Shown here one piece after another: positions 7,948 through 55,001 of a stretch of DNA of 64,000 bases. The translations under genes and the position numbers were made by a program. This DNA is from Escherichia coli (GTDB taxonomy: Bacteria > Pseudomonadota > Gammaproteobacteria > Enterobacterales > Enterobacteriaceae): the NCBI GenBank assembly GCA_032372955.1, contig GCA_032372955.1_4725.1, one strand, 5' to 3'. The notes beneath the pieces are model-generated. The model did no database searches. It was not told the origin of the DNA and saw only the letters and a list, made by a program, of their open reading frames with translations. The first letter of the stretch is position 1. Every line of letters starts with the position of its first letter.

Positions 7948-8745
7948 ATGAGCGATATGTACGCCCGCACGTTAGGTGATTATCCTTTATCGGTGGGGAC
8001 GTCAGCAACATTATCAGCCGTGCAGCAACAGCCAGAAACACAGATGGATTGGTTGTTCAACCTTCGTACTTTAGCACGCAATTTCGTTGAAAGCTTTGAA
8101 GACGTTGAACAACATAAATTACCGTTATCGATGATAACGGGGGATTTTCAAAACGAGTTACTGCAGCTAAGGCAGTTGGTGAATGAACTCGTTCCCCATA
8201 TTCGCTTGCGGATATATGCGCCAACCTATGCGTCAATAAAGCGTGTTTATCCGCACGCGATACATAAGGAGCCACACACCGAAAAACAAAAAGGACTCGC
8301 TACACTTTATCGTGGGTTGATGGCGTCTGTAGATCGACTCCCTAATATCGAATCGATGGATTGTAAATTACCCACGATAACCAAGACATCGTATATCACC
8401 ACGCACTATGTTTCTGACTTGTTGGCAAGAACCGGTTTTGGTGAACTTATTTTGGTAGAAAGCCATACCGGAACTTTGAAACGAAAACATCAGTGGTCAA
8501 CCAAACTTACTGGTGGGGATCGTCCAGAGGTTGCGAACCTTCCATTTACAAAGATGACCTTGGGGACGTTCGGTGACCAAGCCGTACAGTTCAACAGCGG
8601 GCCGGTGAAAATAAAAAGGATGTTGTTAGATCTTGCGAAACAGAGTCAGTGGAATCCATTAACAACGGAAGACCGTACACGCTTTGGCGTCAACCAGTTA
8701 CGTGACCCCTTTGCAAAACGTTTTCTGTTGGACATGTTCCGCTGA
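7948..8745 (+). CDS. hypothetical protein
   Basis: ORF track frame; ATG 7948 preceded by RBS AGAAGGAG. Confidence 0.6.
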   Translation: MSDMYARTLGDYPLSVGTSATLSAVQQQPETQMDWLFNLRTLARNFVESFEDVEQHKLPLSMITGDFQNELLQLRQLVNELVPHIRLRIYAPTYASIKRVYPHAIHKEPHTEKQKGLATLYRGLMASVDRLPNIESMDCKLPTITKTSYITTHYVSDLLARTGFGELILVESHTGTLKRKHQWSTKLTGGDRPEVANLPFTKMTLGTFGDQAVQFNSGPVKIKRMLLDLAKQSQWNPLTTEDRTRFGVNQLRDPFAKRFLLDMFR

Positions 8746-8818
8746 GGCTGTAATTTTTAACTAATATTGACTATCATCTGAACCAGAAATTGATTCACAC
8801 TACGTAACGAGGCTGAAA

Positions 8819-49906: not shown

Positions 49907-50227
49907 ATGGGTAAATGTTGGACGGATAAAGAAGATGAAGCGTTGCTGCTTATTCTTAGCACGTCACCAAAAGCGAGTTATAAAGAAGTAGCACGTTGCA
50001 TGAATCGAACACCATGTTCTATTCGCGCACGTTACATCAGGTTGAGGAAACGACGTGGTGATCTACCGCCTCGCGGGGGAGCTTACACACCCGAAGAAAG
50101 GGTTAGGATTACCATGCTTGCAAAGAAACATACCCTAAAAGAAATTGCTGAAATAATGAATCGTAGCGTACACGCCATCCGGTGTTATTGTTTTCGAAAC
50201 AAGATATCGCTTAAAGTAAGACGTTGA
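49907..50227 (+). CDS. Myb/SANT-like HTH protein, tandem paralog 1 of 6
   Basis: WTDKEDEALL plus HTH-like TLKEIAEIMNRSVHAIR. Confidence 0.55.
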   Translation: MGKCWTDKEDEALLLILSTSPKASYKEVARCMNRTPCSIRARYIRLRKRRGDLPPRGGAYTPEERVRITMLAKKHTLKEIAEIMNRSVHAIRCYCFRNKISLKVRR

Positions 50228-50239
50228 TGGGGTGGCACT

Positions 50240-50707
50240 ATGGTCAAGGACTGGACACCCGAAGAAGACGCGATATTGATTACCCTGTACCGAAACGGTA
50301 TCCCGATGCAAGAGATTGCGGCACGGCTTGACCGAACAGAAGGTTCGGTTCAAGGTCGAATTAACCGTAATCGCAAGCGCTGGAAACTCATGTCGCGTCA
50401 CCGCTATTGTTGTTTCGAAGAACGCGTGATGTTAGCCGATTATCTTAAGACGCATAGCGTAAAAGAAGCTGCAGCGATGTTCAACCGTAGCGTGGACGCA
50501 ATCGCTAAACTCTGCTACCGTTACGGTATTGTTGCATGCAAAGCGCAACGTCGAGAGATGATTTATTATCGAATACATACGCTTAGAAAAGAGAATAACA
50601 CCTGGGAGAGAATACGGAATATCATCAATAACGAATTTAACACCCATTACACGTTAAGCGGTGTTCATAGCCTCTACTACACTCAAGCATTAAAACGCGT
50701 AGAATAG
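50240..50707 (+). CDS. Myb/SANT-like HTH protein, tandem paralog 2 of 6
   Basis: WTPEEDAIL plus SVKEAAAMFNRSVDAIAKL. Confidence 0.55.
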   Translation: MVKDWTPEEDAILITLYRNGIPMQEIAARLDRTEGSVQGRINRNRKRWKLMSRHRYCCFEERVMLADYLKTHSVKEAAAMFNRSVDAIAKLCYRYGIVACKAQRREMIYYRIHTLRKENNTWERIRNIINNEFNTHYTLSGVHSLYYTQALKRVE

Positions 50708-50720
50708 GAGAAATCTCGTT

Positions 50721-51224
50721 GTGAAACCTCCAGTACGACGATGGAATCGTAAGGATGATGAACAGTTGCTGGAATTGTACTATCGTCACCCGAAATTAAA
50801 AATCCGTGAAATCGCAGAAATCATGGAAACAACGTACGGTGCAATTAAATCGAGGTTGATATACTTAAATGTTGAACGTCGTAAACCGCATAAACGTTTC
50901 AGTGTCGATGAGTTGGAATACATCAGAGTGCACTGCAAACACAAAAGTTACAAACAACTCGCACGCGATTTAAACAGGGATCCAAACAGTATTAGAACGA
51001 TTGCACACCGTCATGGTTTCAAGCGGTTAAGCGAGGCTGATACTAAGATCTTCATAGCCTTCGTTGATACATTGTTAGAAGAAACACAGGATTGGCACCA
51101 CATTGCTGAACGGGTTAATGCGCATTTCGGTATAACACGTACGAAGCAGGCTGTCTATCAGCGTTGGTGGCATCATAGAAAGAAAAGAGGGATACAAGAT
51201 GGGACGATCTCGACCGTGGCGTGA
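50721..51224 (+). CDS. Myb/SANT-like HTH protein, tandem paralog 3 of 6
   Basis: WNRKDDEQLL plus SYKQLARDLNRDPNSIRTI; GTG start. Confidence 0.5.
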   Translation: MKPPVRRWNRKDDEQLLELYYRHPKLKIREIAEIMETTYGAIKSRLIYLNVERRKPHKRFSVDELEYIRVHCKHKSYKQLARDLNRDPNSIRTIAHRHGFKRLSEADTKIFIAFVDTLLEETQDWHHIAERVNAHFGITRTKQAVYQRWWHHRKKRGIQDGTISTVA

Positions 51225-51702
51225 CGACGAGCTGAAAGATGTTACGCATCTGTATTTGAACACATCGATGACGATTGATGAAATCGCGCAACGGACAGGG
51301 CGAACACGCGCCAGCGTCGACGCGCGTCTGGGGCGTTTGGGAATACGTCAACGTCAAAAGCATCGGCCGTATACGGAAGAAGAACGCACATACATCAAGT
51401 CGGTAATCAAACAAAAATCGCTGAGGGAGATTGCGTACGATTTAAACCGTTCGTATGACTCGGTTCGTCAGTTTATACGGCTTAATAGAATTCGTCGTGC
51501 GCTAACCAAGCAAGAACGGGAAGCGATTATCGCGTTTATCGCGGAACGACTTAACGTTACCCAAAATTGGAATGTTATCACATACGACGTTGTTGTTAAA
51601 TTTGGGATTACAACGAATAAACATGCGTTGTATCAACGTTGGTGTTACTACACGAAAAACAAAGGAGCTGCCTATGCGCAAATACCGTCGCTGGACAGAT
51701 GA
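51199..51702 (+). CDS. Myb/SANT-like HTH protein, tandem paralog 4 of 6
   Basis: WRDDELKDV plus SLREIAYDLNRSYDSVRQF. Confidence 0.55.
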   Translation: MGRSRPWRDDELKDVTHLYLNTSMTIDEIAQRTGRTRASVDARLGRLGIRQRQKHRPYTEEERTYIKSVIKQKSLREIAYDLNRSYDSVRQFIRLNRIRRALTKQEREAIIAFIAERLNVTQNWNVITYDVVVKFGITTNKHALYQRWCYYTKNKGAAYAQIPSLDR

Positions 51703-52204
51703 GGAACTCTCACGCCTCGAGAATTACGCGGACCAGATACCCAGACCACCGGTTAGTGAGCTGGCTGCTGTATTTCAACGCACAGAAAGCGCGATTAAGA
51801 ATAAGTTGTATATGTTGTTCCCTTCGATGAGAACCAATGAGGCATATACAGACAACGAGATTTCCTATATTCGCGACAATATCCACAGATACTCGGTTAA
51901 ACAACTGTCAAATCATCTTGGCCGATCGAGAGCGAGTGTCGCCTCCGTAATACGACGACTTAAGCTACGTCGATACGACCCAGATGAATGGTGCAAAATT
52001 TCAGACCGTATTACAGCACTTCGACGTGAAGGAGTTAACTGGAGGGAAGTTGCTCGCATTATCAGCGTCGAGTTCAAACGGGAGTATCGTCACACACATC
52101 TTTGTCAGCGTTACTATTATAACACACGTGGTAAGAAATGGCAGCAGGTAAAGAATACACAACAACCGAAATCGCATTCATACGCCGAAACGCGGGCGTC
52201 ATGA
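51674..52204 (+). CDS. Myb/SANT-like HTH protein, tandem paralog 5 of 6
   Basis: WTDEELSRL plus SVKQLSNHLGRSRASVASV; start ATG 51674 with RBS AAAGGAG. Confidence 0.55.
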   Translation: MRKYRRWTDEELSRLENYADQIPRPPVSELAAVFQRTESAIKNKLYMLFPSMRTNEAYTDNEISYIRDNIHRYSVKQLSNHLGRSRASVASVIRRLKLRRYDPDEWCKISDRITALRREGVNWREVARIISVEFKREYRHTHLCQRYYYNTRGKKWQQVKNTQQPKSHSYAETRAS

Positions 52205-52644
52205 CATCGAAAGAAATAGGTGAAGCGTTAGGACGGAGTCAGAGAGCAATTAGCGCGATTGCTTCAATGCTTAACATCAAACTGAGTCATCGTAATCGGA
52301 ACGATATTTTATCGCGGGTTGTCCATTTACGTGATGGCGAGAACCGTCGATGGCGGGAGATCATTACCATCATTCAGGATGAGTTTGATGTCACGTATTC
52401 CGAATCGGGACTACAGCGTGGATATCAACGCGTGAAGCTCACGACGATAAAGAACACCGATCCTACTCGTCTTCGTATGTTAAATGAAATCCATCGTTAT
52501 CGGCAATACGATAAACTTCCATGGAAAGAGGTGCAAAAACGTATCGAGGTGCGTTACAACAAACATTATCAAATCACAACACTTTGTCAAATGTACCGAC
52601 GTCATCGTAATCGACTGTTAGGTAATGAGGGAATTTTAGCATGA
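52138..52644 (+). CDS. Myb/SANT-like HTH protein, tandem paralog 6 of 6 (start uncertain, overlaps paralog 5 in another frame)
   Basis: YTTTEIAFIRRN plus TSKEIGEALGRSQRAISAI. Confidence 0.45.
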   Translation: MAAGKEYTTTEIAFIRRNAGVMTSKEIGEALGRSQRAISAIASMLNIKLSHRNRNDILSRVVHLRDGENRRWREIITIIQDEFDVTYSESGLQRGYQRVKLTTIKNTDPTRLRMLNEIHRYRQYDKLPWKEVQKRIEVRYNKHYQITTLCQMYRRHRNRLLGNEGILA

Positions 52645-53174
52645 GCATCAAAACAGTAGTTATTAATGAACGGCCGTTCTATTGCGTTATCGCCTCAACG
52701 GCCGCCGATCCACACCTTTACCCACATAAACGACAGATTCGTGAGCTGTACCGTATTCTCGACGACGTAGAATCAGAGGCATGGGCTACCACGTTTATGT
52801 TTGAGAATATCCCCGATTTAAAACGCGAGTACGATGCCTTAGAACTAGAAAAGCGTTTACCAGACACCGCAAAGTTGGTCGTTATGATCGACGCCATCGC
52901 TTCGATGCCGGTAGGCCTCTTGGAAGTGAATATAGAGAGCCATATGGGTATTCATGACGTTACATCGATTATTGTAAAACCCGAATATCGCGGACGTGGT
53001 ATCGGCCACGCCTTGATGAACGAAGCACGTAACATCGCTTACCAGTGCGGTGGGCATTCTATTGGCCTGGATGTTCGTGCCGATAACGCTGAAGCCCAGG
53101 CGTTCTATGAGTCTGAGGGTTTCACGGTAAGATCGTCCTGGTTAACATCGTCCGTAAAACAGAAAGGAGCTTAA
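52641..53174 (+). CDS. GNAT-family N-acetyltransferase
   Basis: Motif A VKPEYRGRGIGHALM and C-terminal AQAFYESEGF. Confidence 0.65.
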   Translation: MSIKTVVINERPFYCVIASTAADPHLYPHKRQIRELYRILDDVESEAWATTFMFENIPDLKREYDALELEKRLPDTAKLVVMIDAIASMPVGLLEVNIESHMGIHDVTSIIVKPEYRGRGIGHALMNEARNIAYQCGGHSIGLDVRADNAEAQAFYESEGFTVRSSWLTSSVKQKGA

Positions 53175-53175
53175 C

Positions 53176-53604
53176 ATGAGCTGGTTCGATCGTAAATTCT
53201 TCACGTTGGAAGAAGTCTTGAACCTACCTTGCGACGCGAATAAGGAAAAGATCGCCGACATGCAACGAATCGCATTAACTCACGCGATTAATGATGTCTC
53301 ACAGTTCTCTATCGGTGATCGTGTTGAGCTTCCGTTCGGAACCGGCGAAGAAGGAGATAACACAGCGGTTAAATTCGTTCCCGCTGTTGTCGTGGGTGTC
53401 CATTTCACGGCATCACAAGTCAGTTACGACCTTGCGATACCTATCGACGGTTGTGACTTGTTTATGGTCTTCAACAATTTCCGTGGTGATATGCGCACGA
53501 TAGACGGAAGCAATGCGACCGATTTCATCGAGAAACGTGTTGCCGAGGCGTTGGTGAAGAAAACGCTCGGTACGCCGAATCTTAAAGTTATTGAAAATGA
53601 ATAA
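53176..53604 (+). CDS. hypothetical protein
   Basis: ORF track. Confidence 0.6.
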   Translation: MSWFDRKFFTLEEVLNLPCDANKEKIADMQRIALTHAINDVSQFSIGDRVELPFGTGEEGDNTAVKFVPAVVVGVHFTASQVSYDLAIPIDGCDLFMVFNNFRGDMRTIDGSNATDFIEKRVAEALVKKTLGTPNLKVIENE

Positions 53605-53609
53605 TTGTA

Positions 53610-53637
53610 CCCTCCCGGCATGGGAGGGCTTATGCCG
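53610..53637 (+). promoter_or_regulatory. GC-rich hairpin followed by CTTATGCCG
   Basis: CCCTCCC GGCAT GGGAGGG. Confidence 0.5.
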
Positions 53638-53653
53638 ATAAAAAGGAAACAAA

Positions 53654-54304
53654 ATGAACGACGTTATTGCATTAGTCACGCAAGGCGAAACCAAAATGCC
53701 GTTGCCGTACCAGCAGCTTGCTGCTATCTTAGAACCAATGACGCACCATCAACAATGGATCGTGCGTGAAGAATATACCCAGCGCATCGGGTGGTCATTG
53801 TTAACCATGGATACCGCGCTCCAGTTAGCGAGCATCTGTTACGGGCGACGCGTCGCTGACCTGGGTTGTGGGACGGGTTACCTGACTTACGTGTTACGTA
53901 AACTCGGTGTTGAGGATATTACCGCGTACGACATCGCAATACATCCCCATCCGTTTATTGATGATATCCAGCAAGCGGACTACACAAACATCGATCTTTC
54001 ACAGTACGACGTTATTTTACTGTCGTGGCCACCTTACGACAAACCACAAGCGGCATTGGTTGCCGCACGTATTCAACCTCACCAGCTTTTGGTCTATCAG
54101 GGTGAAGGATACGGAGGCTGCACTGGAGATGACACCTTCCATTCGATGCTTCGTTCGGATTTTGCCTCTGTGGAAGAATTCACCGTTAACTTAAATGCAC
54201 GTCATTTGAACTTTTACGGTATATACGACTCATGGACGGTTTATCGCAAGCAATCAGAATTTACAAAACAAAAGGATGATTTGGAAGATATGCGTCATGA
54301 ATGA
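53654..54304 (+). CDS. class I SAM-dependent methyltransferase-like protein with noncanonical SWPPY motif
   Basis: Motif I VADLGCGTGYLT; downstream DVILLSWPPYD resembles amino-MTase motif IV (D/N/S)PPY but with Trp before PP. Confidence 0.5.
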   Translation: MNDVIALVTQGETKMPLPYQQLAAILEPMTHHQQWIVREEYTQRIGWSLLTMDTALQLASICYGRRVADLGCGTGYLTYVLRKLGVEDITAYDIAIHPHPFIDDIQQADYTNIDLSQYDVILLSWPPYDKPQAALVAARIQPHQLLVYQGEGYGGCTGDDTFHSMLRSDFASVEEFTVNLNARHLNFYGIYDSWTVYRKQSEFTKQKDDLEDMRHE

Positions 54305-54314
54305 AGGAAAAGAA

Positions 54315-55001
54315 ATGGAGGACCGTTTTATGTTAATCGTAACCAGCAGGCAGGAAGTATCCGATTGGCTTAACATTCATCTTAACGCTAACGCCTCCCC
54401 AGGGGGCGTTGTGATCAATCCCGTTTATAATGGGCTGCCGTTCAAAGCTCGATATGAACGAGGTGCGTTGGTATCTGCGAAAGTGAATGACGTCTCATTA
54501 AATCCGGAACATGCTTTACGCGTATTTCGTATTCCGTTAACGATCAATTATCGTGGTTTAGCAAAAGTGATGGTCGTTTCTGGTACGGTATGTAAATACG
54601 CTGAAGCGTCTATCGATGATTTTCATAATGGGGTAAGGCACTTTAGTGCGGTTGCTGTAGGTTATCCTGAAGCGGATCGGGTTGAGGTTATCGAACAGGG
54701 ATCTACAGCTATTCCGTCCGACGTGTTTAAACTGCGTTGTTTGTTCGAGACTTGGCGCTTAGCCAGCTTCAAACAGTCGCGAATCGTTCCACATCGAACA
54801 GTATCGGACGCGCTACGACAGCTTGATGTGATCGTCGCAACGTTAAATCGGACAAAAGGTATTTCTGCGTTGTTGTTTTCGTTGAACAGTCCAGAAGACC
54901 GTTCACGAACGCAGAATCCAGACTGTGTGTTCTTAACCCCGGAAGGAGTTATCCATGGTTTACCGAAGAAGTCTCTGGAAGGTAAGATGGCAACGTCTTA
55001 A
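54315..55001 (+). CDS. hypothetical protein
   Basis: ORF track frame; ATG 54315 with RBS GAAGGAAAAG. Confidence 0.55.
   Translation: MEDRFMLIVTSRQEVSDWLNIHLNANASPGGVVINPVYNGLPFKARYERGALVSAKVNDVSLNPEHALRVFRIPLTINYRGLAKVMVVSGTVCKYAEASIDDFHNGVRHFSAVAVGYPEADRVEVIEQGSTAIPSDVFKLRCLFETWRLASFKQSRIVPHRTVSDALRQLDVIVATLNRTKGISALLFSLNSPEDRSRTQNPDCVFLTPEGVIHGLPKKSLEGKMATS

Follow-up and report, generated by a model that had tools for sequence, protein, structure and literature searches.

On balance, we consider it likely that the methyltransferase-like protein encoded at 53654..54304 of the window (the whole 64,000-nt stretch of DNA that was analyzed) is a functional class-I SAM-dependent transferase from a mainly viral family that carries its own W-P-x-Y motif, and that the GNAT acetyltransferase encoded two genes upstream is independent of it. 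An earlier note made from the same DNA had read this protein as a methyltransferase with an altered catalytic motif, in which a Trp stands before the two prolines where D, N or S is usual, and had proposed either an altered specificity or an inactive binding module. The Trp is indeed found there, within the sequence L-L-S-W-P-P-Y at residues 122-128. The alignments presented below show that it belongs to the family's own motif rather than to an alteration of another one, and the selection estimates speak against inactivity.

The Gene and Its Genomic Setting

At the DNA level, the region shares 96.4% identity with the jumbo phage vB_EcoM_Goslar of Escherichia, which forms a phage nucleus. Its relevant features are the following:

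52641..53174, + strand: GNAT acetyltransferase gene (Pfam Acetyltransf_1, E=8.9e-15, 55.4 bits against a cutoff of 20.7)
53176..53604, + strand: intervening ORF of 142 aa, pI 4.7, which separates the GNAT gene from the methyltransferase gene
53610..53628, + strand: GC hairpin CCCTCCC-GGCAT-GGGAGGG with a perfect 7-bp stem, between the upstream ORF and the methyltransferase gene
53654..54304, + strand: methyltransferase-fold gene of 216 aa plus stop, from the ORF list; ortholog of Goslar gp111, assigned to PHROG 19090 / the 'WPxY-GEGxGGC' family

The window protein presents 93.5% amino acid identity to Goslar gp111 (YP_009820796.1) over all 216 residues. The two proteins differ by 14 amino acid changes, none of which falls in the conserved motifs, and the gene order is the same in both genomes (acetyltransferase gp113, hypothetical gp112, and gp111). 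In RefSeq, gp111 is labeled "class I SAM-dependent methyltransferase" and its record notes a weak similarity to PhiCh1p84. The annotated start of gp111 differs in being 7 residues longer (MPIKGNK). The homopolymer run at 53640-53644 is A5 in the window versus A4 in Goslar and in a second relative, and the extra A puts the upstream start of Goslar out of frame, so that the shared ATG at 53654 is likely the true start. This comparison of sequences suggests that the annotation of gp111 is 7 codons too long.

The ORF itself is genuine and not a chance reading frame, since it has thousands of homologs and its dN/dS ratio relative to Goslar-type orthologs is 0.13-0.17 (0.17 for the comparison with Goslar and 0.13 for that with a 90%-identical relative, none of the substitutions falling in the conserved motifs). 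Purifying selection is strong along the whole length of the gene, and the canonical elements of SAM binding are all conserved: D/E69, the three glycines, D93, and R38. Together, the dN/dS ratios and the retention of these elements argue against a decaying or inactive module.

The hairpin sits in the 49-nt gap located 5' of the methyltransferase gene. Its predicted RNA fold has an energy of -16 kcal/mol (z = -2.4), and its stem is identical in Goslar and in the 90%-identical relative, with one substitution in the loop. It is possible that this hairpin represents a transcript boundary or a stability element. It was not among the terminator-like sites listed by a scan of the region for intrinsic terminators, and it is not a classical intrinsic terminator since it lacks a T-run. 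The promoter scan of the region remained at background level. On the downstream side, the ORF 54276-55001, as called from its first start, overlaps the stop of the methyltransferase gene by 29 nt. The corresponding gene of Goslar (gp110) is annotated with a start at the equivalent of ~54330, which makes it probable that the overlap only reflects the choice of the earliest start codon.

The SAM-Binding Half and the Predicted Fold

Four features of the coding sequence are needed in what follows:

53855..53878, + strand: motif I, A-D-L-G-C-G-T-G, residues 68-75, the glycine-rich SAM-binding loop after strand 1
53930..53932, + strand: codon of D93, the acidic residue that ends strand 2
54017..54037, + strand: family motif IV, L-L-S-W-P-P-Y, residues 122-128, the end of strand 4 and the W-P-x-Y turn
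54101..54133, + strand: G-E-G-Y-G-G-C-T-G-D-D, residues 150-160, the invariant loop from strand 5 to helix E

Conservation was counted across the 158 best-scoring members, aligned to the profile, of the 8,077 cluster representatives described below. Motif I is intact, as the earlier note had stated: its glycines are conserved in 149 to 156 of the 158 members (G71, 149; G73, 156; G75, 155) and residue 69 is acidic in 157 of them. All the generic Pfam models of methyltransferases align at this region. D93 is present as D in 153 of the 158 members and ends strand 2, which spans residues 89-93 in both structure models. In class-I methyltransferases, the hydroxyls of the SAM ribose are canonically bound by an acidic residue that closes strand 2 and, by analogy, D93 would bind the ribose of SAM. 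R38, conserved in at least 90% of the members, is located in the N-terminal helical lid.

Structure prediction, which the earlier note had proposed as a check, yielded a confident model: with a deep alignment, AlphaFold predicted a minimal class-I (Rossmann) methyltransferase fold with a pLDDT of 96.0 and a pTM of 0.91. Motif I, the acidic residue of strand 2, and a seven-stranded alpha/beta fold similar to that of solved methyltransferases place the modeled protein in the superfamily of class-I SAM-dependent methyltransferases, SAM binding and methyl transfer being its predicted activities. The structural neighbors recovered by fold searches, which ran on a first and less accurate model, had similar scores throughout, and no subfamily stood out among them. 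The substrate-side half alone (residues 116-200) presented no PDB match at E<=10 and no Pfam match. Similarly, searching Pfam and NCBIfam with the protein returned only sub-threshold matches to generic methyltransferases, all limited to the SAM-binding half (MTS with 19.5 bits against a cutoff of 23, over residues 63-94 only; PrmA with 17.8 against a cutoff of 22). When 105 members of the family were scanned singly, Methyltransf_23 was found in 82 of them and no specific family emerged.

A Family-Specific W-P-x-Y Motif and an Invariant Loop

When 14 homologs with identities as low as 26% were first aligned, W125, P126, and Y128 were invariant and position 127 was occupied by P, C, A, or D. The larger alignment gave the same picture: W125 is present in 158 of the 158 members, P126 in 155 and Y128 in 143, and position 127 is P in 73 members, D in 31, C in 20, N in 13, and S in 7. 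Since the second Pro is variable and W125 is invariant, the motif of this family is W-P-x-Y and not a mutated (D/N/S)PPY. In this alignment, Trp125 (codon TGG at 54026-54028) is an invariant hallmark of the family and not an altered catalytic site.

The earlier note had based its reading on a PPY tetrad that follows motif I at the spacing typical of gamma-class amino-methyltransferases and HemK-like enzymes. The spacing itself holds: motif I precedes motif IV, 54 residues separate G71 from W125, and two PADLOC DNA-methyltransferase models span this interval, aligning from motif I to residues 128/129 (residues 56-129). The tetrad, however, is partly coincidental, since its second Pro is not conserved among the homologs. 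The note had also considered that the Trp could be uniform in a characterized family, which would make it unremarkable. It is uniform here, but in a family that has no characterized member.

The strongest conservation of the family was missed in that first reading and lies in the loop of residues 150-160. G150 is found in 158 of the 158 members, E151 in 157, G155 and C156 in 155 each, T157 in 144, D159 in 117, and D160 in 122. The loop is ordered in the deep-alignment model, where the block has a pLDDT of ~97 and isolated bridge residues are assigned at P127 and T157, and the W-P-x-Y motif probably packs against G150-E151-G-x-G-G-C156-T-G-D-D. Two further residues, F162 and D192, are conserved in at least 90% of the members.

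A Large and Mostly Viral Family

An exhaustive profile search recovered 8,077 representatives of clusters defined at 50% identity with E<=1e-3, and 1,317 with E<=1e-30. The window protein matched PHROG 19090, whose function is not assigned (E=3.6e-17 over residues 37-198), and it possesses all the invariants of that family: W125, P126, Y128, G150, E151, G155, and C156. The match and these shared residues identify it as a member of PHROG 19090, that is, of the 'WPxY-GEGxGGC' family. The members are mostly viral or metagenomic and include proteins of jumbo phages and haloarchaeal viruses. The family probably extends to giant viruses: several Klosneuvirinae and Bodo saltans virus "methyltransferase" paralogs were matched in a library of viral structures.

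Deposited phage genomes contributed only 32 records when searched with tblastn. These comprise jumbo phages of 234-322 kb with Aeromonas, Klebsiella/Serratia, Salmonella, Xanthomonas, Pseudomonas, Stenotrophomonas, and Raoultella hosts, one uncultured phage of 462 kb, and the haloarchaeal viruses PhiCh1, phiH, and HGTV-1. Among bacterial MAG contigs, a gene of the family was found in very few. The window protein is ~25% identical to PhiCh1 ORF83 (PhiCh1p84) over residues 38-199, and ORF83 and PhiH1_425 of phiH share with it the W-P-x-Y and G-E-G-x-G-G-C motifs common to the family. Members of the family are acidic (median pI of 5.1 and net charge of -8) and present no target-recognition domain.

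We found no named or characterized member in the databases and literature searched. The source names of the relatives do not go beyond "hypothetical protein" or "SAM-dependent methyltransferase", and literature searches for Goslar gp111, PhiCh1 ORF83 / PhiH1_425, and the motif strings returned nothing functional, PhiH1_425/ORF83 being described at most as "uncharacterized". In metagenomes, five family members (P0065, P0101, P0135, P0153, and P0088) are domains inside larger proteins: one of 1,932 aa with four matched stretches, one of 2,030 aa, two with TPR repeats (871 and 926 aa), and one of 576 aa with two methyltransferase domains. No recognizable domain other than TPR was found in the extra regions of these fusions.

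Taken singly, the gene of the window is ordinary, since its Goslar ortholog already bears the label of a generic methyltransferase. What the alignments add to this known label is a Trp that is invariant and marks out a large, mostly viral, and unstudied branch of the methyltransferase fold. The family is of broader interest, with its thousands of members and an extremely conserved active-site architecture that has no counterpart in Pfam or in the PDB. If its substrate were identified, an accessory gene widespread among viruses would gain an annotation, and a new modification of nucleic acids or nucleotides, or a new viral methylation of a host component, could come to light. In nucleus-forming phages, it would also be informative to learn on which side of the boundary of the phage nucleus the enzyme acts. 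It would be reasonable to select the whole family for biochemical characterization.

Possible Substrates and Chemistry

In every class-I methyltransferase, the positions that follow strands 4 and 5 border the acceptor pocket. In the mechanism that we propose, SAM would be bound canonically by D69-x-G-x-G-x-G, D93, and R38, and the pocket facing its methyl group would consist of W-P-x-Y, the loop 150-160, F162, and D192. The acceptor would then lie between W125/Y128, which follow strand 4, and the E151/C156 loop, which follows strand 5. W125 and Y128 may stack on the acceptor or cage it, E151 may act as the acid/base that handles protons, and C156, just before the N-terminus of helix E, could serve as a Michael nucleophile.

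Our leading guess, which we hold tentatively, is that such a protein performs a Cys-assisted C5 methylation of pyrimidines, in a nucleotide or a nucleic acid. The invariant Cys a few residues before helix E and the invariant Glu that ends strand 5 are reminiscent of the Cys/acid pairs found in enzymes of the m5U, m5C, and Dcm types. Among PDB entries, the best match of the profile was a 23S rRNA m5U methyltransferase (the RlmC-like protein of P. horikoshii, 8z62), whose alignment places W-P-x-Y on D-P-P-R of motif IV and strand 5 on "LIYV". In TrmA and RlmD of E. coli, the catalytic Cys belongs to Y-x-S-C-N-P and occupies an equivalent place after strand 5. The alignment of the two PADLOC DNA-methyltransferase models through residues 128/129 is also consistent with this chemistry, as is the genomic context of two haloarchaeal viruses. 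In PhiCh1 (locus L005, 789-3974), the start of ORF83 lies 4 nt ahead of the stop of a gene for an N4-cytosine DNA methyltransferase, and a C5-cytosine methyltransferase gene is found just upstream. PhiH1_425 of phiH is arranged likewise, after C5- and N4-cytosine methyltransferase genes (PMC6210493). No other hint of clustered methylation genes was seen around any family member, and the Goslar-type copy lies among hypothetical genes. One further homolog neighbors genes for a thymidylate kinase and a dCMP deaminase.

Several observations weigh against this guess. The profile-profile comparison with TrmA and RlmD of E. coli (hhalign) covered motif I only, with a probability of 19%, and the Pfam model of m5U methyltransferases (tRNA_U5-meth_tr) matched none of the members scanned, so that the idea of a Cys nucleophile is one of analogy. 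The sequences around the Cys also differ, with Y-x-S-C-N-P in the m5U enzymes and Y-x-G-E-G-x-G-G-C-T-G here, and the present family is acidic and contains neither a TRAM domain nor a central RNA-binding domain. With homology limited to motif I, the protein is not a member of the m5U family (TrmA/RumA), which we retained as a mechanistic analogy only. The acidic character and the lack of a target-recognition domain speak against stand-alone binding of DNA or RNA polymers, whereas a free nucleotide would be compatible. Finally, C156 and D159/D160 could be structural residues involved in loop packing or helix capping.

Alternatively, the substrate could be a cationic acceptor methylated on nitrogen: the Lys, Arg, or N-terminus of a protein, which may be a translation or ribosomal protein of the host, or else a polyamine. 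W125, Y128, and F162 would form an aromatic cage for it, together with E151, D159, D160, and D192. This is possible, although we regard it with some doubt. The acidic nature of the family and the aromatic and acidic character of the conserved pocket residues agree with such an acceptor. Moreover, METTL21A/B/D, METTL18, PrmA, and FAM86A are the structural neighbors with the lowest rmsd (Foldseek), Mtq2 is a structural neighbor as well, and some members are fused to TPR repeats, which mediate protein interactions, in a family devoid of target-recognition domains. On the other hand, the near-invariant Cys156 is left unexplained, Methyltransf_16 was detected in only 2 of the 105 members, and the list of structural neighbors is flat. 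The gene context does not yield any substrate candidate either.

It is rather unlikely, albeit worth stating, that the family represents a new catalytic architecture, shared by viruses of bacteria, archaea, and probably eukaryotes, in which an invariant Trp stands for the polar residue of motif IV and the chemistry is done by the Glu/Cys loop. Such an enzyme might be a hitherto unrecognized SAM-dependent pyrimidine-C5 methylase that acts on free nucleotides or a universal RNA, or a SAM transferase of a group other than methyl that modifies either the nucleic acid of the virus or a conserved target in the host.

We consider it improbable that the protein is a gamma-class or HemK-like amino-methyltransferase (N6-adenine, N4-cytosine, or glutamine-N5) whose tetrad has mutated to WPPY with an altered specificity. 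The family does resemble the enzymes that carry (D/N/S)PP(Y/F/W), such as M.TaqI-type gamma N6-adenine methyltransferases, HemK/PrmC, Mtq2, RsmD, and METTL5. It shares with them the class-I fold, the order of motifs I and IV with a spacing (54 residues) in their usual range of ~50-65, a Pro-containing turn that ends in Tyr after strand 4, and weak matches of sequence and structure. However, it differs by the invariant Trp in place of the hydrogen-bonding D/N/S, by a position 127 that is P in fewer than half of the members, and by the additional invariant Glu/Cys glycine-rich loop. In the mechanism of M.TaqI and HemK-type enzymes, D, N, or S offers the target amino group a side-chain hydrogen-bond acceptor that Trp is unable to give. 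A Trp without exception and a variable second Pro leave no sign of a (D/N/S)PP ancestor in the family. No Pfam or NCBIfam model of amino-methyltransferases reached its cutoff, the matches covered motif I only, and N6_Mtase and N6_N4_Mtase were absent from the 20 families listed by a family-wide Pfam scan. The substrate-side half, as described above, resembles nothing in the PDB or Pfam. Lacking the polar first residue, a conserved second Pro, and a family model at threshold, the protein was not assigned to the (D/N/S)PP(Y/F) amino-methyltransferases.

Quite improbable as well is a function other than methylation, either as a module that sequesters or senses SAM or as an enzyme that transfers an aminocarboxypropyl group in the manner of nicotianamine synthase or MccD. 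Phages manipulate SAM pools, the catalytic position of motif IV is non-canonical, and nicotianamine synthase (MtNAS) and MccD are found among the structural neighbors. Nevertheless, these two proteins score no better than dozens of ordinary methyltransferases, and a mere binder would need neither the near-invariant W125, Y128, E151, and C156 of the acceptor side nor the strong purifying selection that acts over the whole length.

The GNAT Gene and the Neighborhoods of the Family

The GNAT that the earlier note had described as adjacent is a real gene with an intact acetyl-CoA motif (R-G-R-G-I-G, matching Q/RxxGxG/A). It was assigned to PHROG 3810 (acetyltransferase) and is RimI-like, below the NCBIfam cutoff. 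It is not directly adjacent, however: the ORF of 142 aa stands between the two genes. This ORF is conserved as the hypothetical gp112 of Goslar, whose record likens it to a protein of Erwinia phage Bue1, and it presented no match in Pfam, PHROG, or PADLOC.

That the methyltransferase and the GNAT form a two-enzyme module modifying a common substrate is extremely improbable: they lie close on the same strand (52641-54304) in the window phage and in Goslar, but another ORF intervenes and the homolog neighborhoods in Aeromonas, Salmonella, Klebsiella, and PhiCh1 contain no annotated GNAT. More broadly, no recurrent neighbor cluster, at the BLAST level, was found in more than 5 of the 93 loci, and among 150 immediate neighbors each Pfam family occurred at most twice, with no GNAT among the 25 families listed. 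With no recurrent partner across the 93 loci, guilt by association fails, and a conserved methyltransferase-GNAT pair is effectively refuted. Since the homolog neighborhoods lack a GNAT, the closeness of the two genes is a feature of the Goslar lineage alone and has no bearing on function. The GNAT gene is thus an independent accessory gene and a bystander.

Just upstream of the GNAT gene, positions 49907-52644 (+ strand) contain six consecutive paralogous ORFs (49907-50227, 50240-50707, 50721-51224, 51199-51702, ~51674-52204, and 52138-52644) with mutual identities of 23-37%. Each encodes one or two Myb/SANT-like helix-turn-helix repeats (W-T-x-E-E-D ... N-R-S-x-x-A-I), and the last one matches PHROG 323, 'transcriptional regulator, D5-like'. 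This array constitutes a putative set of tandem DNA-binding regulators.

The homolog located near nucleotide-metabolism genes (P0188) is encoded at 8001-8750 on JGI metagenome contigs of 0.6-2.2 Mb (L095-L098), where most of the surrounding genes are unannotatable. Its flanks encode, on the opposite strand, the thymidylate kinase, the protein with a dCMP-deaminase domain, an IcmW-like protein, and split gyrase/topoisomerase IV genes. These contigs could originate from an intracellular bacterium or a giant virus.
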